From the NCBI GenBank assembly GCA_963718045.1, contig OY970350.1:330001-362000 (forward strand): a stretch of 32,000 bases of DNA. The letters are read 5' to 3'. The notes under the pieces are model-generated. The model saw nothing but the letters and a program-made list of their open reading frames with translations. It was not told where the DNA came from and searched no databases. A program made the position numbers and the translations under genes. Shown here piece by piece: positions 11,436 to 27,162 of this stretch (its first letter is position 1; the number at the start of each line of letters is the position of its first letter). The stretch comes from Candidatus Saccharimonadota bacterium. GTDB taxonomy: Bacteria > Patescibacteriota > Saccharimonadia > Saccharimonadales > UBA4665.

Positions 11436-12128
11436 CTAAACAATGGTCGGATAGCTTTTAATCTGCTTTTTAAACTCCAAACATCTAGGCAGCCGGGCTT
11501 CAAGGGCCTGCCAGAACTTAGGTCCGTGCTGCATAATTTCAGTATGGTTTAGTTCGTGCATAATGACATAGTCTATTAGCTCCCACGGCAGTTCCATGAG
11601 ATAAAGATTTAAGGTTATGTTTTTAGAGCTGTCACAGCTGCCCCAGCGTGTTTTAAGGCTTTTTATTCTAAGCTCTTTATATTTAAAGCCGTGTCTACCG
11701 GCCAGTTCTTTAACCCTTATAGGCAGTAATCTGTTGGCCTGAGACGAAAGAGCTCTTTTTATTATTCTTCTGGCTGCTTCTTGGACTTTTGGGTTTGTAG
11801 TATCTAATTCTCTCGGGTAATAAACAACTGCCTCCAGCTCGCTAAGACGAGACGTGACGGTCTTTTTATCAGTCGGCTTAAAGATTAAACGGTGGTTTTT
11901 GCCAATTAGTCTGCCGGGGATCAGCAAAGTTCTTTCTGGTATCTTTTTTAGAATCCAATCCTGCTTGCTTTTAGCAAAGCTTATGGCCGCACTATACGGT
12001 ACCCACGTTGGAATAGACATCTTAACCAGACCTTCACCAGAAATACTTAATCTAATCTGGCGAGACGTTGATCTTTTAGAAACTGAAACATTAATCTGAT
12101 CGTCAAGGGCAAATTGTTTTGATTTCAT
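11436..12128 (-). CDS. YgjP-like (DUF45/M48-type) zinc metallopeptidase family protein
   Basis: 230 aa. RWGSCDSSKNITLN and the C-terminal HExxH region YVIMHELNHTEIMQHGPKFW are typical of DUF45. The ATG abuts the stop of the upstream kinase gene (TAAATG). Confidence 0.8.
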   Translation of the reverse strand: MKSKQFALDDQINVSVSKRSTSRQIRLSISGEGLVKMSIPTWVPYSAAISFAKSKQDWILKKIPERTLLIPGRLIGKNHRLIFKPTDKKTVTSRLSELEAVVYYPRELDTTNPKVQEAARRIIKRALSSQANRLLPIRVKELAGRHGFKYKELRIKSLKTRWGSCDSSKNITLNLYLMELPWELIDYVIMHELNHTEIMQHGPKFWQALEARLPRCLEFKKQIKSYPTIV

Positions 12129-12791
12129 TTAATGGATATAAATATTGCGGCGGGCGACGTCTTCCCGGTCGATGCTGCTCGGTGGTACTAAGTTGACCAT
12201 GCCAGGTTTAGCTAAGTTGCTGGCGTAGTCTTGGACCTGCAGTATGCCCTTATCTCGCATTTTGGACATAACAATGTTTCTTTGGGTTGAAAAATGGTGT
12301 TTACCGCTGGCCACAACCGGGTCTTCATGATAATCGGGGTTCTGCATGTAGGACAAAATGCTATCGAAAGTGGTTCTATCCCAACCGGCTGCATGACGGT
12401 CATCGGCCCGTCTTTTGTCTCTTTTAACATTTCTGGCAAAAGCGCTCTCAACATCAACCTGGAACCAAACAAGTATGGGGGTGGCACCGTGTTTCTTGGC
12501 TATTTCGGCTAAGGCTTTTCTCTGGACCATGCGCATGGCGTTAGTATCATAAATTACGCTCATTCCGGCCGTTAGGAATTCTTCTGTCATATAGTCCATT
12601 AGCTGGGCAACGACGTTATTTTCCTGCTGGTCATGACGGGGTTTTTCAAACAGTTCGCTTCTAACCCGGTCACTTTGTAAGTTGGCAGCCTGGACCTCTT
12701 CAGCAAATTGCCGGGCAAAATATGTCTTGCCTGAGCCAGGAGTACCATAAAATATCATCAGGAACGGTTTGTGCGGCGCTATCTTTGACAT
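12129..12791 (-). CDS. P-loop kinase/NTPase (AAA_33 / zeta-toxin-like fold)
   Basis: 220 aa with the Walker A motif FYGTPGSGKTYFARQF. Its size and layout resemble small-molecule or polynucleotide kinase-like ATPases. The substrate is unknown. Confidence 0.65.
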   Translation of the reverse strand: MSKIAPHKPFLMIFYGTPGSGKTYFARQFAEEVQAANLQSDRVRSELFEKPRHDQQENNVVAQLMDYMTEEFLTAGMSVIYDTNAMRMVQRKALAEIAKKHGATPILVWFQVDVESAFARNVKRDKRRADDRHAAGWDRTTFDSILSYMQNPDYHEDPVVASGKHHFSTQRNIVMSKMRDKGILQVQDYASNLAKPGMVNLVPPSSIDREDVARRNIYIH

Positions 12792-12901
12792 TATGATGAA
12801 TATTGTATATCAGATGTTAGGAGTTTTGAAGTAGTTTGTCAGATGTCAGCTATTAGGTTAGTATAAATGACTACAATTACAAGCTAATTCTAGTCTAGGG
12901 G
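12771..12901. repeat. Direct repeat copy A (131 bp), paired with 19444..19574
   Basis: It aligns base-for-base with 19444..19574 at a constant offset of 6673 bp. By eye I counted about 11 mismatches and no indels. It covers the first 21 nt of the kinase CDS plus the intergenic region. Confidence 0.9.
12802..12830 (-). promoter_or_regulatory. Putative promoter of the kinase operon (near-leaderless)
   Basis: The minus strand reads TTCAAA, a 17-nt spacer, then TACAAT. The -10 ends 10 nt before the ATG at 12791, and there is no Shine-Dalgarno. Confidence 0.4.
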
Positions 12902-12965
12902 CTTACCAAGTAGATCATTCCACAGACTTGCTTCCATCTCTAAGTTGCACATCTTGTCTTGAAAC

Positions 12966-12980
12966 TTGGATTCAATCCAA
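12966..12980 (-). terminator. Weak hairpin downstream of the giant gene
   Basis: TTGGAT-TCA-ATCCAA is a palindrome 28 nt past the stop codon. On the minus strand it is followed by GTTTCAAG, a poor U-tract. A second small hairpin (TTAAC-GTAG-GTTAA) lies next to it. Confidence 0.25.
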
Positions 12981-13007
12981 TCGGATTAACGTAGGTTAAC
13001 AGCCATA

Positions 13008-16000
13008 TCATGGTGGTGCATCTAAGGACTGTAAGCTGCCATTGCTAAATGTTGCCCCGCCGCGTAAGCGATAATTAGTGGCTGGGTGATAATACACTGT
13101 AAAATCGGCAATTGAAGTATGGTTGCCACTTTGGTCCGGGTATGTAGCAGTTTGAGAGTCGTCAAGTACGTAGCTAATCCACATATACCGGCCGATATTA
13201 GTGGTATTGCTACAGCCGTCCGTGGTAAAAACCAGCGGTTTTTTTACTCCGAGAAAACTCAGTCCGGTTGGCAAAGTAGTCAAACCGTTAAATTTTGTGC
13301 AGGCATTGCTGGCAAACCTATATTTAATAATGATGCCGCCCGGCCCGCTGATTCCACCAAGTCCCGGGTTAGTAGAGTTTGAATTGCAAACACCAGAGCT
13401 GCAATCACCACCATTTGTCACTATTTCAGTAGGGTTCGGGTCATCATTAGTAATGCCGGTAAAATCTATCAGACGTGAGTAAAAGCCGACTCGGGGTATG
13501 GACAGTAATCCGGCATAGTCAACCACTGCTGTAATAGTGGCTGAACCAATGGTACCGCCTATCTCATAAAGATAGCCATTATAGACTACAGCAGATGATT
13601 GCCAGGTTCCTGAGGCTAAACCATTAGTGATTGTCCAAGGACCAATAGCGCCGCTATTATTGATGGAGGCATAATAAATGTATGGGCTAATAGCACCACC
13701 AGTAAGATATCCGCCTATCTCATAAAGATAGCCGTTATAGGCGACAGAAGTAGCGGCCATAGTGCCAAATTGCAGACTAGTTGTAGCCGTCCAAGAACCG
13801 AAGGAACCATTACTGCCAATAGCAGCATAGTAAACAGCGGCGGAGGGAGCGCTGCCGACTTCTCCGCCTAATACATAAATATTACCGTTATAGGCGATAG
13901 ATGTAGCTTGTTCGGTGGCAGCCGGCAGATTGCCGGTGGCGGTAGAAGTTGAGCCGCACCAGTCACCGGTTATAGTGCCGGCACAGGTCGCGGGAGCAGC
14001 TAGGGAGCCATTACTATTGATAGCAGCATAGTCAACGGCAGCAGTAAAACCACCGCTGGTAGCTGGAGCACCGCCTATCTCATAAAGATAGCCGTTATAG
14101 GCAAGAGAGGTGGCGTAGTTGGTGGTAGACGGAAGATTACCGGTGGCAGTAGATGTCGAGGCACACCAGTCCCCGGTGATGGTGCCAGGGCAAGTTCCGG
14201 TAGCGGACAGCGAACCATTACTATTGATAGCAGCCCATTCAACAACAGCGGTAATAGTAGAGCCACCGCTAACAACCCCGCCTAGCACATAGATATAGCC
14301 ATTGTAGACAGCAGAACTGGCGGTGTAGTTGTTGATGGGCAGACTACCGTTGCTGGTAGAAGTTGAAGCACACCAGTCACCGGTTATAGTACCGGCGCAG
14401 GTCGTGGGGGCAGCCAGGGCACCGCCGGCGGTAATAACGGCATAACTTACAACAGCAGTAGCGGTACCGGTAGTATATCCCCCCATCTCGTAGATATAGC
14501 CATTGTAGGCGACGGAAGTAGTGTAGTTTGTAACAACAGGCAGGCTGCCGGTAGCAGCAGAAGACGAGGCTGTGACTGTCGTTATCGTACCTTGAATGCC
14601 GTTATTTATTGGGGCATAGTAAACATAGGAGGTAACGGTGGAAATAGCCCCGCCCAACTCATAGACATAGCCATTGTAGACTTGAGAGGTGGAGCCCCAG
14701 ATTCCGGTAGCCGGTATACTACCGTTGGCGGTAGAAGTCGAGACGCACCAGTCACCAGAAAGGTAGACAGGACAGCCGCCGGGAGGAGTCAGGGCGCCAG
14801 TGCTGGAGATAACAGAATAGTCAACAGCGGGGGTAGGGTCGCCGGCGCTGGCAGTCTCACCGCCTATCTCATAAATATAGCCATTATAGACAACTGCGGT
14901 GGCATAGAAATCGTAACTTGGCAAGTTGCCAGAGGCAGTAGAAGTTGAGGCGCACCAGTCACCGGTTATAGTACCGGCGCAGGTGCCGGGAGCGGTCAAG
15001 GCGCCATTGCTAGGATTAATAGTAGTATAGTCGACGATGGCGAGGGGAACATTACCGGTAGTTTCGCCACCTATAACATAGATATAGTTGTTATAAATAA
15101 CAGAGTTAGCACTGGACGTAGCAGCCGGCAGGCTGCCATTGGCAGTAGAAGTTGAGGCGCACCAGTCACCGGTTATAGTACCGGCGCAGGTGCCGGGAGC
15201 GGTCAAGGCGCCATTGCTAGGATTAATAGTAGTATAGTCGACGATGGCGAGGGGAACATTACCGGTAGTTTCGCCACCTATAACATAGATATAGTTGTTA
15301 TAAATAACAGAGTTAGCACTGGACGTAGCAGCCGGCAGGCTGCCATTGGCAGTAGAAGTTGAGGCGCACCAGTCACCGGTTATAGTACCGGCGCAGGTGC
15401 CGGGAGCGGTCAAGGCGCCATTGCTAGGATTAATAGTAGTATAGTCGACGATGGCGAGGGGAACATTACCGGTAGTTTCGCCACCTATAACATAGATATA
15501 GTTGTTATAAATAACAGAGTTAGCACTGGACGTAGCAGCCGGCAGGCTGCCATTGGCAGTAGAAGTTGAGGCACACCAGTCACCAGTAGTGCCGCCGGGG
15601 CAGCCACCGGGAGCGATTAGTGTACCGCCAGTGGGGTTAATACCGGCGTATTCAACGATAGGGGTAATACTGCTACTATTGCCGCCTATCACATAGACAT
15701 AGCCGTAATTGCCATTCGACGCATAAACGACAGAGGTGGAGTAGTCCAAAGCCACGGGCAGTGCTCCGGTAGTTCCCCAAGAACCAATAGCACCACTGGC
15801 ACTGATAGCAGCATAGTTAACGGTAGTGACATTAGCAGCGCTGTTATTGCCGCCTATTTCGTAGATATAATTATTATAGACAGCAGAAGAAGCATAGTAG
15901 GTGGCGGTAGGCAGGCCATTAGTGTTAGTTGTCCAGGAGCCAACCGTCCCGGCACCGGCAATTTGGGCATAGATAACACAATTGTTGTAAGAGCCAATTT

Positions 16001-19000
16001 GTTGCTCACCGCCTATCTCGTAGATATAGCCATTGTAGGCGACAGCGGTAGCACTATCGGTGGCAGCCGGCAGGCTGTCGCTGGCTGTCCAATAACCGAT
16101 ACTACCGTCGCTAGATATAGCCGTATAGTAAACTAAAGCGGTAATGCTAGCAGCAGTAGTATAGCCGCCTATCACATAGATATAGCCGTTAGAGATGACG
16201 ATGGAGGCTGAATTCTCAACAGAGTTCCCCAGGCTTCCCGTCAAGGCGCACCAGTCACCGGTAATGGTACCTCCTGGGCAGGTGGCGGGAGCGACCAGGG
16301 CGCCGGTGCTGGAATTGAGGGCGGCATAGTCAACGGCTCCACTACCAAATATCTCATAGACATAGCCATTATAAACGCCAGCAGAAGCATAGTAGGTAGC
16401 TGTCGGCAGATTACCGGTAGCGGTAGAAGTTGAGGCGCACCAGTCACCGGTAATGGTGCCAGCGCAGGTTCCGGGAGCAGCCAGGGCGCCGCTGCCGGTG
16501 ATGGCAGTATAGTCAACGACAGCAGTAGCGCCGCCACTATAGCCGCCTATTTCATAGATATAGCCATTGTAGGCGACGGAGGCAGAGCTACTGGTGGCAA
16601 CCGGTAGACTGCCTGTAGCTGTCCAAGAACTGATTGCGCCGGTGCTGGAATTGATAGCGGCATAGTCGACAGCGCTGCTAGATCCTCCTATTGCATAAAC
16701 ATAGCCATTATAAACTACAGCGGTTAGTACGTCGGTTGCAGTCGGCAGGTTGCCGTTGCTGGTGGAAGTTGAGGCGCACCAGTTACCGGTAATGGTGCCA
16801 TAGCAGAATGTGGGAGCGGCCAAGGCGCCGGTGCTGGGATTGATAGCGGCATAGGAAACGGTGGCCAGGGGGCCGGTGCTATTATCACCGCCTATCTCAT
16901 AGACATAGCTGTTGTAGGCGACGGAGGCGGCTGCTATGTCATTATAAGGCAGTTCGTCAGTCGCATTCCAAGGAGCAATACCTGCGTCAATTAGGGCGCC
17001 GGTGCTGGGATTGATAGCGGCATAGGAAACAACAGCGGTAGGAGTACCGGGGCCTTGGACAGAGCCACCCATCTCATAAACATAGCTGTTATATATAACG
17101 GAAGTGGCAGATCCGAGTCCATTCGTTAGGCTGCCGTAGTACACGCTAGCACCCTGAGAAGAAGCCGAGGTGCACCAGTCACCGGTAATGATGCCATAGC
17201 AGAATGTGGGAGCAGCCAAAGTGCCATTACTGTTGAGAGCTGCATAGTCAACTTCAGTACCAAGACCGCCAGATATTTCATAGACATAGCCGCTGTAGAC
17301 GACGGAAGTACCCCAGATGTCGGTAGTCGGTAGGCTGCCGTTGGTAGTAGAAGTCGAGGCGCACCAGTCACCGGTGATAGTGCCGGCACAGGTTCCGGGA
17401 GCAGACAGAGCGCCCGTACTGGAATTAAAAGCGGTATACTCAACAACAGCACTATTGCCACCACTATAACCGCCCATTACATAGTCATAACCGTTATAGA
17501 AGACAGAGGATGCTTCAGAGACAGCAGCCGATAGGCTGCCATTGGAGGTAGAAGTCGAGGCGCACCAGTCACCGGTAATAGTACCGGCGCATGTGCTAGG
17601 AGCGGCCAAGGCGCCAGTACTGGAACTGAGAGCGGCATAGTCAACAACGCCGGTAGAAGAACCGCTTATTTCATATACATAATTATTATTAATAACGGCG
17701 GCAGAGTAAGCATTGGTAGCCGGCAGGCTGCCATTGGCGGTAGAAGTCGAGGCGCACCAGTCACCGGTGATGGTGCCGGCACAGGCGCTAGGGGCGGCCA
17801 AGGCGCCAGTACTGGAACTAACGGCAGCATAGTTAACAACAGCAGTAGAAGAACCACCTATTACATAGACATAACCACTATAAGCAACAGAGGTAGCGCC
17901 ATAGGTGCTAGCCGGTAGGCTGCCGTTGGTAGTAGAAGTCGAGGCGCACCAGTCACCGGTGATGGTGCCGGCACAGGCGCTAGGGGTGACCAGGGTGCCA
18001 GTGCTGGAATTGATGGCTGCATAATCTACAACAGCGCCATTGTCATAGCCGCCTAGCTCATAGATATATCCATTATACATGGCAGAGGTAGACATGTAGT
18101 TGGCGGTCGGCAGGCTGCCTGTAGCGGCAGAAGATGAGTAACACCAAGCATATGCCAGGGTGCCAGTGCAGGTGGGGCCGGTAAGATTACCGCCAGTTAA
18201 TCCAGCTTCAATAATCTGGTTATTGGTGCTATTAAAGGTAATATCGCCTTCATTATTGCCATTGATCATAAAATTAGAAGCAGATGCCACAATTACACTG
18301 GGGTCGATCGATATCGGACCGAATATATCCCCTAGCCCACTGGCAGTAACAGTCACAATGTCTCCGGTTAGAGTTAATTTTATATGTTGAGTAGAATTAA
18401 CTGACATTTGCCCATCAGTAGTAATAATTTGCGGTGCTGGCAATACGAAAACTAAATTGTCTTTAACCGACTTTTGACGGGCTTCTAGGACTTTCTGCTC
18501 ATCAGTCGGGCTGCCATAACTAATATTGCCGAATAAAGCTGGGCTGGCCGAGTAGATACCAAGGTTCCCGCCAGACATCATCCGGGCCTGAAGTGTGCTG
18601 GGTAATTTCAATTTATACTGTAACTTAACGGTTCCCCTCGGAGCGCTTGCATAAATTATATCTTCTTGAACACCATTAGTTTTAACGGTATAAACAGCTT
18701 TGCTACCATTCAATCCCATTGGGTATACGGTGTGGCCTGAAATTTGCTTGCCAGGTAAAGTCGAAAATAATGGAATCATGGTAAAAGATAAACCACTGGT
18801 ATCATCATAAGTAGTAACGCCCAGATGAGAGTTAATCGGCAACTTCAAACTAAATTTTGCTTTATCTTTAGAACTGCCCCCTACGGTAACGCTATCTCTA
18901 GATGGTAGCGCTGAACCAGAGCTATTGATTGCCGATTTGCTCAAAAAATAAGTTTTGCTTTTGGCGTCATAAGTAAACTGTGACAAAAGACTCTTATCGG

Positions 19001-19340
19001 GCTGACCGATTAGGGCTTGTTCATTCACTGGCAGTTTGTAGCTGGCAGTAATTAAGCTGCGCATATAAAATACCGAGCCGATTGCCAAAACAAACACTGC
19101 CAGTATTACGATGCCAAAACAAGCCCACTTAATCCGGCGTTTCCCAAGACGGTTAATAGTAAGCCTTAACTTGTGTTTGATTATTCTAAATGGCAGTTTA
19201 AGCCTTTTAGTGAACGGGTTAACAATATAAGTAGCAGTCTGAAGAAACGGCTTAAGAATTCTACTAATTAAACCACTTACTGGATTAGATGGAGTCTGAG
19301 CCTTCTTTTTTTTAGCTGTTGTTATTATTTTATCTCTCAT
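13008..19340 (-). CDS. Giant (2110 aa) N-terminally membrane-anchored repeat protein with ~25 Kelch-like beta-propeller blades; putative surface protein
   Basis: A single uninterrupted ORF. It starts with a basic N-tail and one hydrophobic helix (IKWACFGIVILAVFVLAIGSVFYM). Repeated ~60-75-aa units end in YNGY[IVL]Y[EV][IML]GG, and many contain CAGTITGDWCASTST.NGSLP. Confidence 0.9.
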   Translation of the reverse strand: MRDKIITTAKKKKAQTPSNPVSGLISRILKPFLQTATYIVNPFTKRLKLPFRIIKHKLRLTINRLGKRRIKWACFGIVILAVFVLAIGSVFYMRSLITASYKLPVNEQALIGQPDKSLLSQFTYDAKSKTYFLSKSAINSSGSALPSRDSVTVGGSSKDKAKFSLKLPINSHLGVTTYDDTSGLSFTMIPLFSTLPGKQISGHTVYPMGLNGSKAVYTVKTNGVQEDIIYASAPRGTVKLQYKLKLPSTLQARMMSGGNLGIYSASPALFGNISYGSPTDEQKVLEARQKSVKDNLVFVLPAPQIITTDGQMSVNSTQHIKLTLTGDIVTVTASGLGDIFGPISIDPSVIVASASNFMINGNNEGDITFNSTNNQIIEAGLTGGNLTGPTCTGTLAYAWCYSSSAATGSLPTANYMSTSAMYNGYIYELGGYDNGAVVDYAAINSSTGTLVTPSACAGTITGDWCASTSTTNGSLPASTYGATSVAYSGYVYVIGGSSTAVVNYAAVSSSTGALAAPSACAGTITGDWCASTSTANGSLPATNAYSAAVINNNYVYEISGSSTGVVDYAALSSSTGALAAPSTCAGTITGDWCASTSTSNGSLSAAVSEASSVFYNGYDYVMGGYSGGNSAVVEYTAFNSSTGALSAPGTCAGTITGDWCASTSTTNGSLPTTDIWGTSVVYSGYVYEISGGLGTEVDYAALNSNGTLAAPTFCYGIITGDWCTSASSQGASVYYGSLTNGLGSATSVIYNSYVYEMGGSVQGPGTPTAVVSYAAINPSTGALIDAGIAPWNATDELPYNDIAAASVAYNSYVYEIGGDNSTGPLATVSYAAINPSTGALAAPTFCYGTITGNWCASTSTSNGNLPTATDVLTAVVYNGYVYAIGGSSSAVDYAAINSSTGAISSWTATGSLPVATSSSASVAYNGYIYEIGGYSGGATAVVDYTAITGSGALAAPGTCAGTITGDWCASTSTATGNLPTATYYASAGVYNGYVYEIFGSGAVDYAALNSSTGALVAPATCPGGTITGDWCALTGSLGNSVENSASIVISNGYIYVIGGYTTAASITALVYYTAISSDGSIGYWTASDSLPAATDSATAVAYNGYIYEIGGEQQIGSYNNCVIYAQIAGAGTVGSWTTNTNGLPTATYYASSAVYNNYIYEIGGNNSAANVTTVNYAAISASGAIGSWGTTGALPVALDYSTSVVYASNGNYGYVYVIGGNSSSITPIVEYAGINPTGGTLIAPGGCPGGTTGDWCASTSTANGSLPAATSSANSVIYNNYIYVIGGETTGNVPLAIVDYTTINPSNGALTAPGTCAGTITGDWCASTSTANGSLPAATSSANSVIYNNYIYVIGGETTGNVPLAIVDYTTINPSNGALTAPGTCAGTITGDWCASTSTANGSLPAATSSANSVIYNNYIYVIGGETTGNVPLAIVDYTTINPSNGALTAPGTCAGTITGDWCASTSTASGNLPSYDFYATAVVYNGYIYEIGGETASAGDPTPAVDYSVISSTGALTPPGGCPVYLSGDWCVSTSTANGSIPATGIWGSTSQVYNGYVYELGGAISTVTSYVYYAPINNGIQGTITTVTASSSAATGSLPVVTNYTTSVAYNGYIYEMGGYTTGTATAVVSYAVITAGGALAAPTTCAGTITGDWCASTSTSNGSLPINNYTASSAVYNGYIYVLGGVVSGGSTITAVVEWAAINSNGSLSATGTCPGTITGDWCASTSTATGNLPSTTNYATSLAYNGYLYEIGGAPATSGGFTAAVDYAAINSNGSLAAPATCAGTITGDWCGSTSTATGNLPAATEQATSIAYNGNIYVLGGEVGSAPSAAVYYAAIGSNGSFGSWTATTSLQFGTMAATSVAYNGYLYEIGGYLTGGAISPYIYYASINNSGAIGPWTITNGLASGTWQSSAVVYNGYLYEIGGTIGSATITAVVDYAGLLSIPRVGFYSRLIDFTGITNDDPNPTEIVTNGGDCSSGVCNSNSTNPGLGGISGPGGIIIKYRFASNACTKFNGLTTLPTGLSFLGVKKPLVFTTDGCSNTTNIGRYMWISYVLDDSQTATYPDQSGNHTSIADFTVYYHPATNYRLRGGATFSNGSLQSLDAPP
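14941..15561 (-). repeat. Three perfect in-frame 207-bp tandem repeats inside the giant gene
   Basis: Units at 14941, 15148 and 15355 are identical by direct comparison. Each encodes the 69-aa unit GTCAGTITGDWCASTSTANGSLPAATSSANSVIYNNYIYVIGGETTGNVPLAIVDYTTINPSNGALTAP. Confidence 0.95.
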
Positions 19341-19443
19341 TTTCCTATCTATTTTACATTAATAAGCGCTAGTGTTCGACATAACAATAGTACCCACATC
19401 AGTCGTGCCGCTGGTTGGCGCCGTAATTACGCTTATTCCGGCA

Positions 19444-19574
19444 GTGCGGCACCATCTTTGACACTATGATGAATATTGTATACCAGATGTTAGGAGTTTT
19501 GAAGTAGTTTGTCAGATGTCAGGCATTGGGTTAGTATAAATGACTAGAATTACAAGTTAATTCTAACCTAGGGG
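19444..19574. repeat. Direct repeat copy B (131 bp), paired with 12771..12901
   Basis: See copy A. This copy ends 5 nt into tRNA-Trp. It begins with a relic of the kinase 5' end in which the ATG has become GTG. Confidence 0.9.
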
Positions 19575-19643
19575 TGTCCGTTAATGGTAAGCGGCGACTC
19601 TCCAAAAGTCGTGCTGTCGGTTCAAGTCCGGCCACCCCTGCCA
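19570..19643 (+). tRNA. trnW: tRNA-Trp (anticodon CCA), with the 3' CCA encoded
   Basis: Hand-folded cloverleaf: acceptor AGGGGTG/CACCCCT, D stem CGTT/AGCG, anticodon stem CGACT/AGTCG with loop CTCCAAA, and T arm GTCGG-TTCAAGT-CCGGC. Confidence 0.9.
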
Positions 19644-19756
19644 AAATATGACAATAAGTATTAATTAACTACTTTTGACGAATATTTGTTGATTTTTGCT
19701 GTGTGGTATACTTTTTACAGATTATATAAGCTTTAACGTAATTTGAGGGAGTTATT

Positions 19757-20248
19757 ATGCCGAAAAAAATAAATAGAACTTTAATTATAACTATCTGTTT
19801 AATTATTGTAGTTATAGTGGTACTAGCTGTTGTTTTAATAGTTAGGAACAACAATAAGAATTCAAATACACTTAGTGCTAGCCAGCAGACTGCAGCCAAG
19901 CAGTTAATTGACACCAATTGGCAGCAATTCTTTGCCGCTTCAACTTCACTACAGGGGCGGGAAAACCTTCTACAAAAAGGCGGCAGCTACAGCCAATACG
20001 TCCAGGCTGAGTTTTTCGGACTAGCTGCTCAAAAATCCAGAGCTGTTATTAATAGCGTCATTTTTGTGAATAAGACTAAAGCCAATGTTGTTTACACTGT
20101 TTATCTTAATAGCCGACCTCTTTTAAGCGACGAAAAGGGCCAGGCACTATTTATAGATAATTCATGGAAAGTCAGCGATGGTACGCTTTGTCACCTATTA
20201 AACTTTGGCGCTAATACACCGGCTGTCTGCAAGAACTTACCATATTGA
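19757..20248 (+). CDS. Hypothetical membrane-anchored or secreted small protein
   Basis: 163 aa. A GAGGGAG Shine-Dalgarno lies 6 nt upstream of the ATG. An N-terminal hydrophobic helix (LIITICLIIVVIVVLAVVLIV) is followed by a ~120-aa soluble domain. A TGGTATACT extended -10 lies at 19704..19712. Confidence 0.6.
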   Translation: MPKKINRTLIITICLIIVVIVVLAVVLIVRNNNKNSNTLSASQQTAAKQLIDTNWQQFFAASTSLQGRENLLQKGGSYSQYVQAEFFGLAAQKSRAVINSVIFVNKTKANVVYTVYLNSRPLLSDEKGQALFIDNSWKVSDGTLCHLLNFGANTPAVCKNLPY

Positions 20249-20286
20249 CGATATATTAGTAATCTAAAGAGCAAGAAGACTAAATA

Positions 20287-22650
20287 TTATCTGCCAAGTT
20301 TCTCTTCTGTTTTTTTAATGTCTATGGTTGTTTTCACTACCGTATCGGGTGCAAGCGAGATACTGTCTATTCCCTCTTCAACCAAGAAGCGGGCAAATTC
20401 AGGGTAATCTGACGGCGCTTGGCCGCAAATTCCAATATGCACCTTCTTTTGTTTGCTGACTTTTATGACTCTCCTAATGAGTTCCTTCACGGCCTCGTTG
20501 TTTTCATCATATACATGAGCGACAGTCTGGTTGTCCCTGTCAACACCGAGTGTTAACTGGGTTAAATCGTTTGACCCGATCGAGAATCCGTCAAACAGAT
20601 CAGCAAATTGTTCGGCCAGGATAACATTTGACGGAATTTCACACATCACATAAACTTCAAATCCATTTTCACCTCGTTTAAGTCCGCATTTTTCCATAAT
20701 TGCTATAACTTTATGGGCCTCATCTAAATTGCGGCAGAAAGGGATCATAGCTTTTATGTTAGTAATGCCGATTTCGTTGCGGGCTTTTTTAAGGGCCTGG
20801 CATTCAAGTTCAAATGCCCCGCGATATGCTTCACTGTAGTAGCGGCTTGCGCCCCGCCAGCCAAGCATCGGGTTATCTTCAATCGGCTCAAACTGCTTGC
20901 CGCCAATAAGATTGGCATATTCATTTGTTTTAAAATCGCTGAATCTAATTATGACGTCATTGGGGTAAAAAGCGGCGCCAATTATGCCGACACCTTCGGC
21001 TAATTTGTCGACAAAATATTGTGATTTATTGGTATATCCGCGGGTCAGGTCATTAATTAGCACCCGTGTTTTTTTATCTGTAATTTTGTCAAAATGCAGC
21101 AGTGCTAGGGGGTGAATCTTAATGTGAGAATCAATAATGAATTCTTCCCTGGCTAGGCCGACGCCGTCATTTGGAATCAATGAATACTCAAAGGCAAGGT
21201 CCGGGGAACCTATATTCATCATTATTTTCGTTTTTGGCCGCTGGAGGTTTTTTATATCAGTCTTATCAACCTTAAATTTCAAAATGCCTTCGTATACCAG
21301 TCCTTCATCGCCGCCGGCGCAACTTACTGTAATAGAGCTGCCGTTGGCTATTTTCTGGGTGGCATTTCCTGTACCGACAACACAGGGTATTCCAAGCTCC
21401 CTCGAGACGATTGCGGCGTGGCACGTTCGTCCGCCTTTATCGGTAACGATGGCGCTTGACTGTTTCATTATGGGCACCCAATCTGGATCGGTCATCTCTG
21501 TTACGAGAACATCCCCATCTTTAAATAAGCCAATGTCTTTAACGTCCATAATTTTACAAACTTTGCCGGATCCAATCTTATCGCCAACACTAGTTCCTTT
21601 AGCGATGACCGTACCGCTTTCAAGCAGTTTGTATTCCTCGACAACGTTCAGATCTTTGCGTGATTCAACTGTCTCGGCTCTGGCCTGAACTATATAAAGT
21701 TTTTTGTCTTTGTCATCCAGGGCCCATTCTATATCCATTGGCTTGCCGTAGTGTTTTTCAACTTCCATGCCCCATTTGGCCATAGTTATAGCCTGCCCGT
21801 CAGAAATGGAATATTTAGCCTGATCAGATTTAGAAACAGAGATATTTTTAGTCCGGTTGCCAAAAGCAGTTATCATCCTAAGTTTTTTATTGCCGAGTTT
21901 TCTTTTAATGATAGTCATTGTTGGTTTGAAGACCGTAAACTCATCAGGATTTACCCGGCCTTGGACAATGTTTTCACCTAACCCATAAATTGAACTAACG
22001 ACAACTGCGTTTTTAAAGCCTGATTCGGTGTCAATAGTAAACATAACCCCTGCCGCCTTAGCGTTGACAGCTACCATTTGCTGAATGCCAACCGAAAGAG
22101 CAACCTTCATATGATCAAAGTGATTTTCTACACGGTAAACAATGGCCCGGTCTGTAAACAAAGATGCAATACATTTCCTGACTGCTGATAGTACGGCTTT
22201 CTCACCTTTTATATTTAGAAATGATTCTTGCTGTCCGGCAAAAGAAGCATTCGGTAAATCCTCAGCTGTTGCCGACGAACGTATAGCAACTACTAAATTA
22301 CGGCCACCACATATTTTGCTTAACTCCCGGTAGCCCTCAATTATTTCTTCTTCAAAATCTTTTGGCAGTTTTGAGTGAATTATTAGGGAGCGGATTTTTA
22401 CGCCGGCTTTTTCAAGCTCCTTAATGTTGGTTACGTCAAGGCCTTTAAAATTTTCAATTATTGCGTTTCTAATACCGGCATGTTCAATAAAGTAGTAATA
22501 ACTTTTGGAAGTGGTGGCAAATCCATTCGGCAAATTAATACCTTTAGGGGCTAATTTTTGGTACATTTCTCCCAGTGAAGCATTTTTCCCTCCGACCTCG
22601 GGAACGTCAGATAGAGAAATATCTTTGAAAAATTTTATATATTTGTACAT
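20287..22650 (-). CDS. ppsA: Phosphoenolpyruvate synthase (pyruvate, water dikinase)
   Basis: 787 aa. The N-terminal VPEVGGKNASLGEM, the phosphohistidine motif GGRTCHAAIVSRELGIPCVVG, and the C-terminal PEP-utilising domain (SIGSNDLTQL) all match PpsA. Confidence 0.93.
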   Translation of the reverse strand: MYKYIKFFKDISLSDVPEVGGKNASLGEMYQKLAPKGINLPNGFATTSKSYYYFIEHAGIRNAIIENFKGLDVTNIKELEKAGVKIRSLIIHSKLPKDFEEEIIEGYRELSKICGGRNLVVAIRSSATAEDLPNASFAGQQESFLNIKGEKAVLSAVRKCIASLFTDRAIVYRVENHFDHMKVALSVGIQQMVAVNAKAAGVMFTIDTESGFKNAVVVSSIYGLGENIVQGRVNPDEFTVFKPTMTIIKRKLGNKKLRMITAFGNRTKNISVSKSDQAKYSISDGQAITMAKWGMEVEKHYGKPMDIEWALDDKDKKLYIVQARAETVESRKDLNVVEEYKLLESGTVIAKGTSVGDKIGSGKVCKIMDVKDIGLFKDGDVLVTEMTDPDWVPIMKQSSAIVTDKGGRTCHAAIVSRELGIPCVVGTGNATQKIANGSSITVSCAGGDEGLVYEGILKFKVDKTDIKNLQRPKTKIMMNIGSPDLAFEYSLIPNDGVGLAREEFIIDSHIKIHPLALLHFDKITDKKTRVLINDLTRGYTNKSQYFVDKLAEGVGIIGAAFYPNDVIIRFSDFKTNEYANLIGGKQFEPIEDNPMLGWRGASRYYSEAYRGAFELECQALKKARNEIGITNIKAMIPFCRNLDEAHKVIAIMEKCGLKRGENGFEVYVMCEIPSNVILAEQFADLFDGFSIGSNDLTQLTLGVDRDNQTVAHVYDENNEAVKELIRRVIKVSKQKKVHIGICGQAPSDYPEFARFLVEEGIDSISLAPDTVVKTTIDIKKTEEKLGR

Positions 22651-22782
22651 TTTTTGTCCGTTTTTTAGTTAATTATTCAGGCCATATTATATCAGGTTTT
22701 TAGGAGCATAAGCATATTAATTTCCAGATATTCTATAACGGATAAAATATTAATAATCGGCCAAATTAAATGAAATCCAGGG

Positions 22783-22791
22783 TGGTATAAT
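22783..22791 (+). promoter_or_regulatory. Extended -10 promoter element (TGGTATAAT) for the adk-like gene
   Basis: TGnTATAAT is matched exactly and ends 8 nt before the ATG at 22800. There is no Shine-Dalgarno in between. Confidence 0.4.
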
Positions 22792-22799
22792 TGGCTTTA

Positions 22800-23453
22800 A
22801 TGGAAGAAGAAATAAAAACCATTTCTAAGTGGCTTGGTGCTGGTTCTATTGATATTTTCGGCTGTCCCTTTTCGGGGAAAGACACCCAGGGAGAAGTTTT
22901 AGCCAAGTTATTTGGCGGTGAAATGATATCCGGCGGAGATATACTGCGGAGCCATAAAGAACCAGCCAAAATTGATCAGGTTCTAGGCAGCGGCGGTCTT
23001 GTCCCGTCCGATTTTTACCTGGACTTAGTTTTACCCTACTTATCGCAAAGAAAGTACAGCGGCAAACCGTTAATATTAAGCGCGGTTGGCCGGTCTCATG
23101 GTGAAGAGCCGCAAGTTATTAAAGCGGCCGCTGATTCAGGGCATCCCATTAAGGCAGTAATACTCCTTGATTTAACTGAACAAGAGGTCTGGCGGCGGTT
23201 TGAAGAGTCTAAAGTTGAAGGCGACAGAGGCAAGCGGGCCGATGATAAGCGGGCCATAATTGAAAACAGGCTAAAGAAATATAATACAAGAACGGTGCCG
23301 GTTATCGATTACTACCGCAGTGCTGGTTTACTAATTGAAGTCAATGGAACATTGCCGCGCGAAGAAGTGACTGATGAAATCCTAAAAGGATTGGTTAATA
23401 AATCAAAAAACTTAGGCATTAGTCGGGGTGACGTCAATCTTGCTAACCGTTGA
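22800..23453 (+). CDS. adk: Adenylate kinase family (nucleoside monophosphate kinase), divergent
   Basis: FGCPFSGKDTQGEVLAKLFGGEMISGGDILR, GGLVPSD and RADDKRAIIENRLKKYNTRTVPVIDYY align with Adk motifs. It has the short-LID form. The ATG at 22800 is preferred over the ORF-track TTG at 22791. Confidence 0.72.
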   Translation: MEEEIKTISKWLGAGSIDIFGCPFSGKDTQGEVLAKLFGGEMISGGDILRSHKEPAKIDQVLGSGGLVPSDFYLDLVLPYLSQRKYSGKPLILSAVGRSHGEEPQVIKAAADSGHPIKAVILLDLTEQEVWRRFEESKVEGDRGKRADDKRAIIENRLKKYNTRTVPVIDYYRSAGLLIEVNGTLPREEVTDEILKGLVNKSKNLGISRGDVNLANR

Positions 23454-25070
23454 TCCGGCCGATAATCCATCAGTGTTTATTTCGTAGGTAATTATCTGTT
23501 CAAAAGGCATTTCAAAACTGGCGATATCTTCGTCACTAATAGATTCTAGGTATTTCGTAAGGGCCCTTAAACTGTTCCCGCTGGCGACAATTAGAATATT
23601 GTTGCCATTTTGAAGCTCAGGCAGTATGGTCTGTTTATAGAACGGTAAAACGCGGTCATAGACATTTTTGAGCGTTTCACCTCTCGGGATAGGTTCATCC
23701 CACCCCCGCCTTATATTATTAAATGCATCTTCGCCGAGGGAGTTTTTTATATCCCATTTGTTCTTTCCGGTGTATTCGCCGTAGTCTCTTTCGTCCATTG
23801 CGGCCGATGTTTTAACTTCCACTCCAAGTATTTGGGCAGTATCAAGCATTGCCTCTAGTGTTTCACGGGTTCTGATTTGCTCCGAACAGTAAGCCTTATC
23901 TATATGAATATCGAGTTTTTTTAGAGCTTGGCCCAAAGCCCTAGAGTCATTAAATCCTTTATCGCTTAGGTGCACATCGGTTCGTCCCGTCCATTTACCT
24001 TGTGCATTCCATTCCGATTCGGCATGTCTGGCAATTATCAGCCTACCGGCTGGCTTCTTGTCAATTTTAACCTTGTTTGGCGTACTGCCGGACCAATAGT
24101 CAATAATATTTTTGGCGGTTATCTGGTTAATCCTTAGAATTGCCTCTTCCGTGTTAAAGGCATTGTGCGGGCTGACAATTACATTAGGCATTTTTTCTAG
24201 GACGGATATCTCAACACCATGATGAAGCAAGTCCTCGGGGATAGTATCGCTTCTTAAAAGCGCTGTTTCCTCATGGTAATTGAGCAGTACTTCACCTTCT
24301 ATGACATCAATACAAGCACCTCCCAATTGACCGTTGCAAAGCAGTTCGGTTAATGCTTCGGTGTCTACCAGTTCTCCCCTGGCAGTATTTATTAATATAG
24401 CGCCAGGTTTCATTTTGTTAAGTTTTTCCTGGTTCATAATATGGTGGGTGGACGGTAAATAAGGTAAGTGCAGCGAAACAATATCTGATTGAGCAAGCAG
24501 ATCGTCTAATTCAACATACTTAAAATTAAGCTTGTCTTGAAGTTCGGGTTTTTGAAAACTATCAAAGGCAACTGTATTCATCGAGAAACCACCGGCAATT
24601 TTAAGTGCTTTCTGACCAATATGCCCAGTGCCAACTACCCCGAAGGTTAATCCCTCAAGGTCATGACCCATTAATTCCTTAGATGAGAACTCAGTATTCC
24701 CGGCTTTAAGTACGGCTGGCAGCTTGCGTTTCAGGGCCAGCAGCAATGCGAAAGCATATTCGGCAACTGTATTTTCGCCGTATGTTGGGACGTAGACAAC
24801 TGTTATACCGTGTTCCTCCGCCGCAACCAGATCAATATTATTAAATCCGGTTGACCGGCAGGCGATTAATTTAAGTTTGGGCAGTGCTTCAATAACTTGT
24901 CGGTTAATTACACTCGTTATAAATACCGAGATTACCTCAGTATCCGGATTGCAGTTTGACAGTTCGCATTTATCTGCTACAAATTCCCAATGATGGTCGG
25001 TACTAGAAAGAGCAGCGCTCAGCTGTTCTTTATCTAGATCAGTGGCATCGTAGAAATATATCAAAGCCAT
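23412..25070 (-). CDS. Fusion protein: D-isomer-specific 2-hydroxyacid dehydrogenase (LdhA/SerA-like, N-terminal ~330 aa) plus 2,3-BPG-dependent phosphoglycerate mutase/histidine phosphatase (C-terminal ~215 aa)
   Basis: 552 aa. GVVGTGHIGQ (NAD-binding), NTARGELVD and SPHNAFNT mark the dehydrogenase. LIIARHAESEWNAQGKWTGRTDVHLSDKG marks the dPGM (RHGESEWN-type motif). Confidence 0.82.
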   Translation of the reverse strand: MALIYFYDATDLDKEQLSAALSSTDHHWEFVADKCELSNCNPDTEVISVFITSVINRQVIEALPKLKLIACRSTGFNNIDLVAAEEHGITVVYVPTYGENTVAEYAFALLLALKRKLPAVLKAGNTEFSSKELMGHDLEGLTFGVVGTGHIGQKALKIAGGFSMNTVAFDSFQKPELQDKLNFKYVELDDLLAQSDIVSLHLPYLPSTHHIMNQEKLNKMKPGAILINTARGELVDTEALTELLCNGQLGGACIDVIEGEVLLNYHEETALLRSDTIPEDLLHHGVEISVLEKMPNVIVSPHNAFNTEEAILRINQITAKNIIDYWSGSTPNKVKIDKKPAGRLIIARHAESEWNAQGKWTGRTDVHLSDKGFNDSRALGQALKKLDIHIDKAYCSEQIRTRETLEAMLDTAQILGVEVKTSAAMDERDYGEYTGKNKWDIKNSLGEDAFNNIRRGWDEPIPRGETLKNVYDRVLPFYKQTILPELQNGNNILIVASGNSLRALTKYLESISDEDIASFEMPFEQIITYEINTDGLSAGSTVSKIDVTPTNA

Positions 25071-25112
25071 ATCAGTGTTTATTATACATAAGAATTATGA
25101 GAACATTAACAT

Positions 25113-26384
25113 ATGAAAATCTCGAGGATAAAAGCCAGGCAGATCCTTGATTCCAGGGGTGAACCTACAGTTGAAGCAGATGTCTGGCTTGATAATGGTA
25201 TTTTTGGCCGGGCAGCAGTTCCTGCCGGTGCCTCGACTGGTTCTCATGAAGCCCATGAACTTCGTGACGGCGGCAATGCATTTGACGGAAAAGGTGTTTT
25301 AAATGCAGTTGCCAATATTGAGGGCGAGATTGCTGACCACCTAAAAGGTGTAATGGCTGATGACCAGCTTATGGTTGACCAGAAAATGATAGACCTTGAC
25401 GGTACCCCAGATAAGTCAAGACTAGGCGCCAATGCTATTTTAGCCGTATCCTTAGCCTGTGCTCGTGCCGCAGCAAATGCCCGGCAAGTACTGCTATATG
25501 TACATATCAACGATATTGCCCATAATCCGCCAAGAACAATTCCGTTGCCAATGATGAATGTTTTAAATGGCGGTAAACATGCTACAAATTCTGCCGACTT
25601 CCAAGAGTACATGATAATACCCAGGCGTGTTTCAACTTATTCCCAGTGTGTTCAGGTCGGGGCTGAGATATTTCAATCCTTAAAACGCAAAATAGCTTCA
25701 CTTGGTGCCTCAACGGCGGTTGGTGATGAGGGTGGTTTTACTTACCCGGTAAAAAGCAATACGGAAATGCTCGATTTGTTAGGCAGTGCTATTAATGAGT
25801 CAAGTTTTAAACCGGGTGATGATGTTTATTACGCCCTAGATGTAGCTGCTTCAGAGTTTTTTAAAGACGGCATGTATACTTTAAAAACTGAGAATCGGCA
25901 GTTAGCTAGCAGTGAGATGATTGATTATCTGTCGACCATTTCTGATTCTTACCCGCTTATATCGATTGAGGATGGGTTAGACCAAGATGCCTGGGAAGCT
26001 TGGCCAGTCATGACATCACGGCTGGGAAGATTACAGATTGTCGGTGATGATTTACTGGTAACAAATTCTGAAAGACTAAAAAAAGCGATCGATATAAAAG
26101 CTGGCAATGCTATTCTTATCAAGCCAAATCAGATCGGGACGCTTAGTGAAACAATACACACCATAAAATTAGCCAAAGATCATGGCTGGCGTACTGTAGT
26201 TTCACACCGAAGCGGCGAAACGGAAGATGTGTCTATAGTCCATATCGCTATTGGTACAGGGGCAGACCAGATAAAGATCGGCAGTTTATCTAGAAGCGAA
26301 AGAAATGCTAAGCATAATGAAATTATGCGTATTGAGGAAATAGATAAGACATTAAAGTTGGCAAATCCTTTTAGCGCTAATTAA
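25113..26384 (+). CDS. eno: Enolase (phosphopyruvate hydratase)
   Basis: 423 aa. ARQILDSRGEPTVEADV, GASTGSHEAHELRD, IKPNQIGTLSET and SHRSGETEDV are canonical enolase motifs. Confidence 0.97.
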   Translation: MKISRIKARQILDSRGEPTVEADVWLDNGIFGRAAVPAGASTGSHEAHELRDGGNAFDGKGVLNAVANIEGEIADHLKGVMADDQLMVDQKMIDLDGTPDKSRLGANAILAVSLACARAAANARQVLLYVHINDIAHNPPRTIPLPMMNVLNGGKHATNSADFQEYMIIPRRVSTYSQCVQVGAEIFQSLKRKIASLGASTAVGDEGGFTYPVKSNTEMLDLLGSAINESSFKPGDDVYYALDVAASEFFKDGMYTLKTENRQLASSEMIDYLSTISDSYPLISIEDGLDQDAWEAWPVMTSRLGRLQIVGDDLLVTNSERLKKAIDIKAGNAILIKPNQIGTLSETIHTIKLAKDHGWRTVVSHRSGETEDVSIVHIAIGTGADQIKIGSLSRSERNAKHNEIMRIEEIDKTLKLANPFSAN

Positions 26385-26405
26385 GTTTATTACAAATACA
26401 AGGTG

Positions 26406-26434
26406 TTGTAATATGACAGCTAGTGTAATATACT
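26406..26434 (+). promoter_or_regulatory. Putative promoter/operator of the toxin-antitoxin operon
   Basis: TTGTAA, a 17-nt spacer, then TATACT. The -10 ends 6 nt before the ATG at 26441. The direct repeat TGTAATAT (26407..26414 and 26424..26431) overlaps both hexamers. Confidence 0.45.
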
Positions 26435-26440
26435 AACAGT

Positions 26441-26707: not shown

Positions 26708-26709
26708 CT

Positions 26710-27039: not shown

Positions 27040-27162
27040 ATATCTCTTGACTGTGTCTGATAATAAGTTCGCCATACCTCCAATAGTTGACAGTAAAGCA
27101 ATTTACCGCCCCTGCTGTATAGATTGTATTTCGTAGTTTGTTTATAAAATATTAATTATCTC

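Follow-up and report, generated by a model that had tools for sequence, protein, structure and literature searches.

A fragment of about 6.5 kb carrying one gene was probably joined, illegitimately, into the junction between a P-loop kinase gene and tRNA-Trp in the genome of a Candidatus Saccharimonadota bacterium, with the target duplicated on both sides of the insert. The window, the whole stretch of DNA that was analysed, covers 32,000 nt of assembly GCA_963718045.1 (contig OY970350.1, positions 330,001 to 362,000), and the features of the locus are collected in Table 1.

Table 1. Features of the kinase/tRNA-Trp locus, in window coordinates.
Feature	Position	Strand	Basis or remark
P-loop kinase gene (AAA_33/KTI12-like), intact	12129..12791	-	ORF; Pfam AAA_33 E = 6e-20
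Repeat copy A	12771..12901		Kinase codons 1-7, 105-nt intergenic region, 5 nt of tRNA-Trp 5' end
Kinase promoter-like hexamers TTCAAA-17-TACAAT	12802..12830	-	Overlap extended -10 TGnTATAC
Orphan tRNA-ward promoter-like site TTGTCA-17-TAGTAT	12836..12864	+	Antisense into giant-gene 3' end
Giant-gene 3' flank	12902..13007	-	In the window allele, replaces the pseudo-tRNA body kept by L104
Giant gene, 2110 aa	13008..19340	-	ORF; Pfam Kelch_KLHDC2 E = 1e-28
Putative giant-gene leader, arrived with the gene	19341..19423	-	Homologous to LVIVD-repeat gene end and short spacer in L111
Relic reading frame of kinase start	19399..19464	-	GTG, 20 further codons and TGA, from sequence
Second kinase relic	19424..19443	-	Beyond copy B; codons ~75-80
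Repeat copy B	19444..19574		Native upstream region of tRNA-Trp, with kinase-start relic (ATG to GTG)
Duplicated kinase promoter, hexamers intact	19475..19503	-	Faces giant gene, ~128 nt upstream of its ATG
tRNA-Trp (CCA), functional	19570..19643	+	ARAGORN; Rfam tRNA 51.1 bits

The direct repeats that flank the insert, 12771-12901 and 19444-19574, are identical at 120 of 131 positions (92%) in a gap-free alignment at a constant offset of 6673 (BLAST E = 1e-46), in agreement with the first-pass annotation, which had counted about 11 mismatches and no indels. The giant gene's internal repeats aside, this is the sole long two-copy direct repeat that a repeat search found in the window. Copy A had been described as carrying the kinase 5' end through seven codons and copy B as entering tRNA-Trp by 5 nt, and both edges agree with the kinase ORF and with the ARAGORN and Rfam placement of the tRNA. 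The kinase start in copy B indeed reads GTG, and its frame, put earlier at about 22 codons, closes after 21 sense codons. An exact stretch of 39 nt is common to the two copies; taken as a sign of gene conversion or constraint, a run of this length is not significant (P ~0.2 among 11 differences, by our own estimate). An Rfam scan of 12000-20500 at E <= 1 returned the real tRNA alone, and the repeat matches no known RNA element.

We examined whether the repeat might be a product of assembly. Four long contigs obtained independently from different samples (L103, L104, L105 and L115) have the same structure, as does an NCBI assembly contig (L106). Short-read contigs from at least five samples end at window positions 12840, 19493 and 19484, exactly where breaks are predicted, because the 39-nt run common to both copies forces a branch in a k=31 graph. 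An assembly artefact or chimeric contig could be suspected from the general risk of metagenome assembly and from the length of the repeat-rich giant gene, which differs between assemblies; since the copies differ at 11 sites and the junctions are identical in at least five independent assemblies, both long-read and short-read, we regard this explanation as extremely improbable.

The kinase gene is a conserved divergent neighbour of tRNA-Trp in Saccharimonadales: in 69 of 90 informative loci the two lie directly side by side and divergent, with 86-250 nt between them. The giant gene is missing from every kinase/tRNA-Trp neighbour locus examined, and it was found here only in the window's own species, in contigs that encode a kinase protein 100% identical to that of the window. 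The site is empty in the closest two relatives, L059 (kinase 97% identical, on a 280-kb contig) and L001 (85%), and also in L060 (86%), in which tRNA-Trp lies upstream of the kinase and is divergent from it. These loci supply the ancestral empty site that had been predicted for related genomes. About 100 other lineages are all empty at the site, none with a relic of the insert. Extra DNA lies between tRNA-Trp and the kinase in seven other lineages (L004, L005, L033, L039, L082, L085 and L098), none of which has flanking repeats, and we therefore see no recurrent mechanism. We propose that the ancestor had the clade-wide order of tRNA-Trp, a divergent promoter region of about 105 nt and the kinase gene.

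Copies A and B each align with the single-copy junction of L059 and L001, as expected of an insertion-duplication. When these two relatives were used to polarise the 11 differences, four were derived in A, five in B and none in both, and most of the derived states sit in the half that is redundant for that copy. Because the derived states are split between the copies with none shared, A and B go back to a single ancestral intergenic region. The genes on the outside are intact, with tRNA-Trp beside copy B and the kinase beside copy A, and the inner ends are broken gene pieces: a kinase relic in copy B and, in copy A, a 5-nt tRNA relic in the window.

At the inner end of copy A, the conspecific strain L104 retains a decayed but whole pseudo-tRNA-Trp, inside a stretch of 196 nt that matches window 19639..19444. 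The Rfam tRNA model gives the pseudo-tRNA 31.6 bits, versus 51.1 for the real gene, and its four changes in 72 nt amount to the decay rate seen in the remainder of the repeat. The 3' end of the tRNA coincides with the right boundary of the original duplication. In the window, positions 12902-12911 ('CTTACCAAGT' vs 'CTGCCAAAAT') were considered as a relic of the pseudo-tRNA 3' end and are too short to call. On the other side, the second kinase relic matches the kinase gene at 17 of 18 positions (19442..19425 against 12569..12552; chance ~1e-4, our own estimate), so that the kinase part of the duplication must have measured at least 243 nt before it lost about 200 nt internally. The 131 nt are what is left of a duplication that once covered at least ~420 bp. 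The first-pass annotation had the whole intergenic region duplicated, and this stands; its extent was set too short, since the original target took in the tRNA-Trp body as well as the intergenic region and at least 243 nt of the kinase.

Between the copies lie 6542 nt with a single ORF, in keeping with the earlier description of a ~6.5-kb segment holding the giant gene alone. The encoded protein has an N-terminal membrane anchor, a domain of ~350 aa, about 25 Kelch-type repeats with a period of 64-69 aa, and a C-terminal domain of 240 aa, and is predicted to be a membrane-anchored Kelch-repeat surface protein. A literature search turned up no account of this locus, nor of Kelch-repeat giant genes in Saccharibacteria. 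The gene family has paralogues in the same genome, and homologues elsewhere follow LVIVD giant genes or precede parA/parB. Those in L110 and L111 begin 18-54 nt past the preceding gene and are therefore operonic there. The leader of the giant gene in the window corresponds to the last ~20 codons of the LVIVD-repeat gene plus the spacer that precede the homologue in L111. The left edge of the insert thus cuts into the final codons of the LVIVD-repeat gene, and the giant gene therefore came without a promoter of its own. The donor fragment would have been excised from an operon of giant-protein genes, with its left cut within the 3' end of the LVIVD-repeat gene.

At the other edge, the 3' flank of the giant gene is common to the window and L104 only in the 18-21 nt beside the stop codon. 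The flank has no terminator-like site, its fold is indistinguishable from shuffled sequences (z = -0.13), and a BLAST search of its 106 nt against all loci gave no source. Composition, which had been put forward as a check, did not mark the insert as foreign: high GC is confined to the Gly/Ala/Thr-rich repeat part of the giant gene, and in the non-repeat domains GC and GC3 are like those of the genome (GC3 0.39).

The direct repeats, the tRNA gene at one end and the existence of empty sites would all suit a site-specific integrative element, such as a genomic island or prophage remnant, bounded by true attL and attR sites. Integrase islands at tRNA genes are flanked by direct repeats of a short core sequence, in most cases taken from the 3' part of the tRNA, and share with this locus a border tRNA gene, flanking direct repeats and presence/absence polymorphism among relatives. 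Unlike them, the insert here has no integrase, and its cargo is one gene cut from an operon. According to the ORF list and Pfam, 12902-19443 holds no further ORF, integrase/recombinase or transposase. The repeat comprises the tRNA 5' end or whole body, the region upstream and a piece of a protein gene, originally at least ~420 bp, rather than a 3'-end core; the left edge of the insert cuts a coding region; and the 39-nt core had no match among 2.9 million viral contigs. An integrative element, already contradicted on its defining features, is therefore very improbable, and of the first-pass wording 'attL/attR-like' the geometry holds while the recombinase and the tRNA 3'-end att core are missing. 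Transposons and insertion sequences have a transposase, terminal inverted repeats and a target-site duplication of 2-14 bp; here there is no transposase ORF, the repeat search found no inverted repeats in the window, and the duplication is 131 nt now and was originally at least ~420 nt. Given the lack of an integrase, a transposase and inverted repeats, we read the event as an illegitimate insertion-duplication, not as site-specific attL/attR integration.

The single-gene fragment would accordingly have entered the junction by illegitimate recombination, without a mobile-element enzyme, and the event would have duplicated at least ~420 bp of target, leaving one copy on each side of the insert. 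Two routes may be considered for the duplication. One is a Campbell-type single crossover with a circularised fragment that also bore a piece of the target. In laboratory insertion-duplication mutagenesis, a circular DNA with an internal fragment of the target integrates by such a crossover. The locus resembles that outcome in that the repeats on either side of the insert duplicate the target locus itself, the copies are truncated at their inner ends with the outer genes intact, and recombination between them restores a single-copy site; it differs in lacking a known vector or circular donor, in the make-up of the duplicated piece, which includes a tRNA, a promoter region and the start of a gene, and in being natural and ancient (8% copy divergence, later deletions). 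The other possible route is a replicative template switch. Segmental or tandem duplications and template-switch insertions likewise give 'target duplications' of hundreds of base pairs, with illegitimate junctions within coding regions and no element-encoded enzymes. Unlike in microhomology-mediated template switching, the sole reconstructable junction here (19423/19424) has a 2-nt filler, 'AC', and no clear microhomology. Saccharibacteria are naturally competent (PMC10633639, PMC10187176), which offers a possible entry route for DNA fragments.

A two-step origin would place the giant gene first at the 3' side of tRNA-Trp, convergent with it, in a variable island; tandem duplication of the block giant gene, tRNA, intergenic region and kinase 5' part, followed by loss of the first copy of the gene, would then give tRNA-intergenic region-kinase', the giant gene, and pseudo-tRNA-intergenic region-kinase. 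This sequence of events would fit the inner end of the original duplication in L104, which coincides with the tRNA 3' end, and the variable 3' side of tRNA-Trp, where L059 carries a glycosyltransferase and a PIN toxin/antitoxin pair on a 2.4-kb insert and L001 has a different neighbour. Yet none of the genomes sampled carries a gene of the giant-gene family beside tRNA-Trp, and two extra events are required, one of them a precise deletion; we consider such an origin unlikely. We favour insertion and duplication in one step, a step that we infer. Afterwards the outer halves, tRNA-Trp on the B side and the kinase on the A side, would have stayed functional, and the inner halves would have decayed because they were redundant: the kinase relic would have lost its ATG and about 200 nt, and the second tRNA would have become a pseudogene, kept by L104 and mostly lost in the window, leaving the 131-nt core.

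The favoured timing, after the split from L059, leaves one observation unexplained. In the 3' (C-terminal) block of the giant gene, L104 and the window differ by a dS of 0.35, above the 0.20-0.26 between window and L059 housekeeping genes, in a strain that is otherwise 99.96% identical in background. Such a block may point to carriers of the gene that are more divergent and so far unsampled, or to conversion from another member of the family. It could also be taken to mean that the same kind of event predates the L059 split, with a different timing and polarity, and that the nearest relatives became empty at the site later, through recombination between the repeats; an A x B deletion rejoins the constrained halves and hence would look 'ancestral', as in the contig L107 described below. 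Against an older insertion stand the ~100 other lineages, empty and without relics, the lack in L059 of any A-derived or B-derived state, and the decay of the redundant halves and pseudo-tRNA, which at ~0.05 per site falls short of half the value predicted from the window-L059 dS. We judge an older insertion to be improbable, slightly more so than the two-step origin. Positive selection on the giant gene between strains was also considered and rejected (dN/dS ~0.15-0.2).

The short-read contig L107 has the copy B state at the seven tRNA-side sites and then the copy A state at the four kinase-side sites, with the switch point inside the 39-nt exact run and the giant gene deleted, precisely as in an A x B recombinant. 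It is otherwise identical to the window save for its last ~150 nt, which are chimeric with an L059-like haplotype. L107 could be a real deletion or an assembly collapse in a k=31 de Bruijn graph; unlike L107, five other short-read samples break at the repeat. The 39-nt run would permit a RecA-type deletion of the giant gene, of which L107 is a candidate product. The earlier prediction that recombination between the repeats would delete the giant gene is matched by the structure of L107, with excision in nature so far surmised.

The kinase promoter hexamers overlap an extended -10 motif that is conserved across ~46 related intergenic regions. In copy B the only change near the -10 is at the free N of TGn, and the TGnTATAC motif is intact. 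The hexamers are also unchanged there (19503..19475) and face the giant gene, as the first-pass annotation had noted, although their survival in both copies would occur by chance in ~12% of cases at 8.4% divergence (our own estimate) and is not statistically remarkable. Judging from these motifs, the giant gene is most likely transcribed from the duplicated kinase promoter with a leader of ~128 nt. The locus would then resemble promoter capture by relocated genes, with a promoterless gene downstream of a duplicated resident promoter that it presumably uses; unlike in promoter capture elsewhere, the promoter duplicate was made by the insertion itself and the resident kinase keeps its own copy. 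The tRNA-ward site orphaned in copy A is also found upstream of the real tRNA-Trp (19509-19537).

We regard the giant gene as a clear-cut but unremarkable instance of gene insertion, probably accompanied by promoter capture, that reveals no new kind of system. A more elaborate reading, which we think unlikely, is that the duplicated junction is a working module, a 'gene cassette' with homology arms and no enzyme of its own, by which an epibiotic CPR bacterium would vary its surface. If so, the 39-nt core would let lineages shed a costly giant gene, L107 would be a real deletion variant, and the conserved tRNA, intergenic and kinase arms would allow the cassette or blocks of it to be re-imported between species by natural transformation, which would explain the divergent block of L104.

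As an ordinary insertion, the locus is a natural, reconstructed example of a promoterless 6.3-kb surface-protein gene placed in a deeply conserved housekeeping junction of a streamlined CPR genome. No essential function was lost because the target was duplicated, and the same event would also have supplied the newcomer with a promoter. The steps of later decay are recorded at the locus as a pseudo-tRNA, a truncated gene start and internal deletions. Giant surface proteins are thought to mediate host attachment in this group, and the repeat pair offers a directly testable route for the loss of a giant surface-protein gene.

The first-pass annotation described direct repeats on either side of the giant gene, which encodes a Kelch-repeat, membrane-anchored predicted surface protein, each repeat carrying pieces of the adjoining kinase and tRNA-Trp genes. 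Alignment, BLAST, and ORF reading verified this description in all its details: coordinates, offset, about 11 mismatches, the contents of both copies, and the GTG relic. The two copies form a gapless alignment, 6673 nt apart throughout, in which 120 of 131 positions are identical (BLAST E = 1e-46), and the relic of the kinase start in copy B reads GTG, 20 more codons, and TGA.

Features of the duplicated junction and apparent gene fusions elsewhere in the window (window positions)
Feature	Position	Strand	Content
P-loop kinase	12129..12791	-	AAA_33/KTI12-like
Copy A	12771-12901		kinase codons 1-7, 105-nt upstream region, AGGGG
Giant gene	13008..19340	-	single 2110-aa ORF filling the space between the copies
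Copy B	19444-19574		region upstream of tRNA-Trp, first 5 nt of the tRNA, kinase-start relic
tRNA-Trp(CCA)	19570-19643	+	
776-aa ORF	1294-3624	-	apparent fusion, thymidylate kinase and Thy1 (ThyX) domains
552-aa ORF	23412-25070	-	apparent fusion, 2-hydroxyacid dehydrogenase and His_Phos_1 phosphatase/mutase domain

An assembly duplication, which the annotation had named as an outcome that would overturn its reading, was ruled out. The copies differ from each other at 11 sites, and the same junctions recur in five further contigs, of which L103, L104, L105, and L115 are long and come from four other samples, and L106 belongs to an NCBI assembly. In five samples, short-read contigs (k=31) break off at window 12840, 19493, or 19484, exactly the branch points that a de Bruijn graph requires at the 39-nt exact run common to both copies. 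The length of the giant ORF itself varies among conspecific assemblies (window, 2110 aa; L104, 2041 aa; L105, 1977 aa; L103, split into 348+1684 aa). The assemblies differ by entire repeat units of 207 or 192 nt, especially in window 14920-15633, which belong to a run of 91-100% identical units; these length differences reflect either repeat-number polymorphism or long-read collapse.

To look for the empty site, we used the kinase as a probe and gathered 102 loci, all of Saccharibacteria/Saccharimonadales, from collections of genomes and metagenomes; tRNA-Trp lies upstream of the kinase in 90 of them. It adjoins the kinase divergently at 86-250 nt in 69 of the 90, the empty arrangement that the annotation had proposed to search for, and at 339-395 nt in 2. 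Another 9 loci have tRNA-Trp in the opposite orientation, and in 10 the two genes are separated by other DNA (0.85-7.5 kb), at none of which did we find flanking repeats. The nearest relatives are all empty: L059 (kinase 97% identical, flanks ~93% at the nucleotide level, 280-kb contig), L060 (86%), and L001 (85%) each have one tRNA-kinase intergenic region, 103-106 nt long, that can be aligned with copy A and copy B alike. When three parts of the giant protein were compared with the fetched loci by tblastn, matches were confined to contigs of the window's own species. These results together bear out the central claim of the annotation, that a segment with the giant gene as its sole cargo broke up an ancestral kinase/intergenic/tRNA-Trp junction.

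The surroundings of the junction differ among relatives in other ways. Directly 3' of tRNA-Trp, L059 carries a 2.4-kb insert (L059 7399-9810, corresponding to window 19655-19675, where the window has 21 nt) that encodes a 455-aa PMT-like membrane glycosyltransferase and a PIN-domain toxin paired with an antitoxin. L001 passes directly from tRNA-Trp to the homologue of window ~27151 onward, and the 7.5-kb block at 19676-27151 (Mtb12_C-like, PPDK, adenylate kinase, dehydrogenase-mutase, and enolase genes) is missing from that position. Two short-read contigs (L118 and L121) end at window 19615, 30 nt inside the 3' end of tRNA-Trp, as expected if their samples also hold a relative with an identical tRNA and a different 3' flank, as in L059, which means that sister lineages co-occur within single samples. 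An 88-aa ORF and a 109-aa PemK-type toxin (26441-27039) occupy window 26399-27128, where L059 has about 63 nt, a toxin-antitoxin presence/absence difference between sister species. The two apparent fusions in the table rest on Pfam hits listed for identical genes in L104/L112.

We polarised the 11 differences between the copies with L059 and L001. Derived states number 4 in copy A and 5 in copy B. In A, 3 of the 4 fall in the tRNA-proximal half, which is redundant there; in B, 3 of the 5 fall in the kinase-proximal half, redundant in that copy, and one of these is the ATG-to-GTG change. At no site are both copies derived, and the remaining two sites are ambiguous. This is the pattern expected from one duplicated sequence, each copy decaying where it is redundant. 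The duplication was much longer at first. In the conspecific strain L104, which matches the window at 99.96% identity on the kinase side, copy A extends through an almost entire tRNA-Trp, matching window 19639..19444 over 196 nt. This pseudo-tRNA scores 31.6 bits against the Rfam tRNA model, with broken pairs (51.1 for the real tRNA-Trp), and ARAGORN made no call for it in L104. With 4 changes in 72 nt, the pseudo-tRNA has decayed as far as the redundant half of copy A and therefore dates from the duplication itself. Where L104 has this pseudo-tRNA, the window allele has about 85-88 nt of unrelated sequence, and the two alleles have only 18-21 nt in common after the giant-gene stop codon. On the other side, one base past copy B, a second kinase fragment (19442..19425 versus kinase 12569..12552, 17/18, in the same order and orientation) has a chance of about 1e-4 by our own estimate, and shows that the duplicated piece of the kinase once extended to codon ~80 or beyond, about 200 nt of it being lost afterwards. 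The unit first duplicated thus measured at least about 420 bp: 72 nt of tRNA body, 105 nt of intergenic region, and at least 243 nt of kinase.

The redundant halves and the pseudo-tRNA have decayed by about 0.05 per site. Synonymous divergence between the window and L059 (dS 0.20-0.26) predicts over twice this decay, so the observed value fits an insertion later than the L059 split. The L104 giant allele does not fit this timing as well. Compared with the window, its N-terminal domain has dS 0.098 and its last 720 nt dS 0.35 (76 differences), with a nearly identical middle; the adjacent PPDK gene has dS 0.004, and the kinase side differs by 4 nt in 10.8 kb. Import from a much more divergent carrier, or conversion from another member of the family, must account for the dS 0.35 block together with the different pseudo-tRNA junction; a search for the source found none. 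With dN/dS at about 0.15-0.2 over the gene (L104 3676-9801 versus window 13008-19340), we rejected positive selection between strains and attribute the mosaic divergence to recombination imports.

Homologues of the N-terminal domain occur in other Saccharibacteria contigs at 39-56% identity, one of them a paralogue in L104's genome. Full-length relatives of about 54% identity are found in L110 and L111, starting 18-54 nt after a preceding LVIVD-repeat gene, and parA/parB follow a homologue in L122; none of the homologues in these or the other contigs lies near tRNA-Trp or the kinase. In L110 (from L104's genome) and L111 (ERZ25039473 contig_17178), the relatives cluster behind giant LVIVD-repeat genes of >2400 and >3100 aa, with Replic_Relax, AAA_14/DUF4143, and ParA genes coming after the cluster in L111. 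The final ~20 codons of the L111 LVIVD gene and the short spacer behind them have their homologous counterpart in window 19341-19423, with one run identical at 24/24 positions. This places the left edge of the insert at an illegitimate cut within a coding region, and the giant gene therefore arrived without a promoter of its own. The composition check proposed in the annotation found genome-like GC/GC3 in the non-repeat domains (0.42/0.39 and 0.45/0.39), with raised GC limited to the Gly/Ala/Thr-rich repeats, supporting relocation within the lineage's gene pool rather than acquisition of foreign DNA.

Across about 46 aligned single-copy intergenic regions, the kinase is preceded by a TTCAAA-like -35 that is conserved and by an extended -10, TGnTATAC, that is strongly so. 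Copy B retains both intact (19503..19475), as the annotation had claimed for the hexamers; the single nearby B-specific change falls on the free N of TGn, and hexamer identity between the copies is statistically unremarkable. Since the imported leader, the tail of a coding region, contains no other plausible sigma-70 site, the giant gene is most likely transcribed from the duplicated kinase promoter, with a predicted leader of ~128 nt containing the 21-codon relic frame. A promoter-like site facing the tRNA side (12836-12864, +) persists as an orphan in copy A, where it points into the 3' end of the giant gene in the antisense direction; the pseudo-tRNA of L104 would be driven by this site.

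The annotation had called the arrangement attL/attR-like, which holds for its geometry and fails as a mechanism. Unlike tRNA attL/attR islands, the repeat is not a tRNA 3'-end core, and we found no recombinase or transposase in the insert, no inverted repeats in the window, and no match to the 39-nt core among viral contigs. The structure fits an insertion-duplication, with the target duplicated on both sides, inner ends truncated, and outer genes intact, and we favour duplication and insertion as a single inferred event. It might have proceeded by a Campbell-type crossover of a circularised fragment also carrying a piece of the target, or by a replicative template switch; uptake of such a fragment is plausible because Saccharibacteria are naturally competent (PMC10633639). 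The sole reconstructable junction has a 2-nt filler and no microhomology. Alternatively, the giant gene may first have lain 3' of tRNA-Trp, with a tandem duplication then followed by loss of the first copy. This would agree with an original duplication boundary at the tRNA-Trp 3' end and with the variability of that side, where L059 bears its insert, but the intermediate arrangement appears in no genome examined.

Recombination between the copies, if it occurs, would delete the giant gene, and one contig matches this outcome. In L107, a 10.2-kb Logan contig (SRR31840417), tRNA-Trp is joined directly to the kinase, with 7/7 B states on the tRNA side, 4/4 A states on the kinase side, and the switch within the 39-nt exact run; the rest is identical to the window, save an L059-like chimeric last ~150 nt. 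Because it holds derived states of both copies, L107 is not the ancestral allele, and its sequence is exactly what A x B recombination would be expected to produce. We give about equal weight to a real deletion variant and a k=31 collapse; contigs from five other short-read samples break at the repeat without reading through, a mild argument for a real variant. The locus, from an uncultivated Saccharimonadales species, is a well-documented case of natural insertion-duplication in which a promoter was probably captured and for which a candidate deletion derivative exists; it adds a new example of an already known kind of event.
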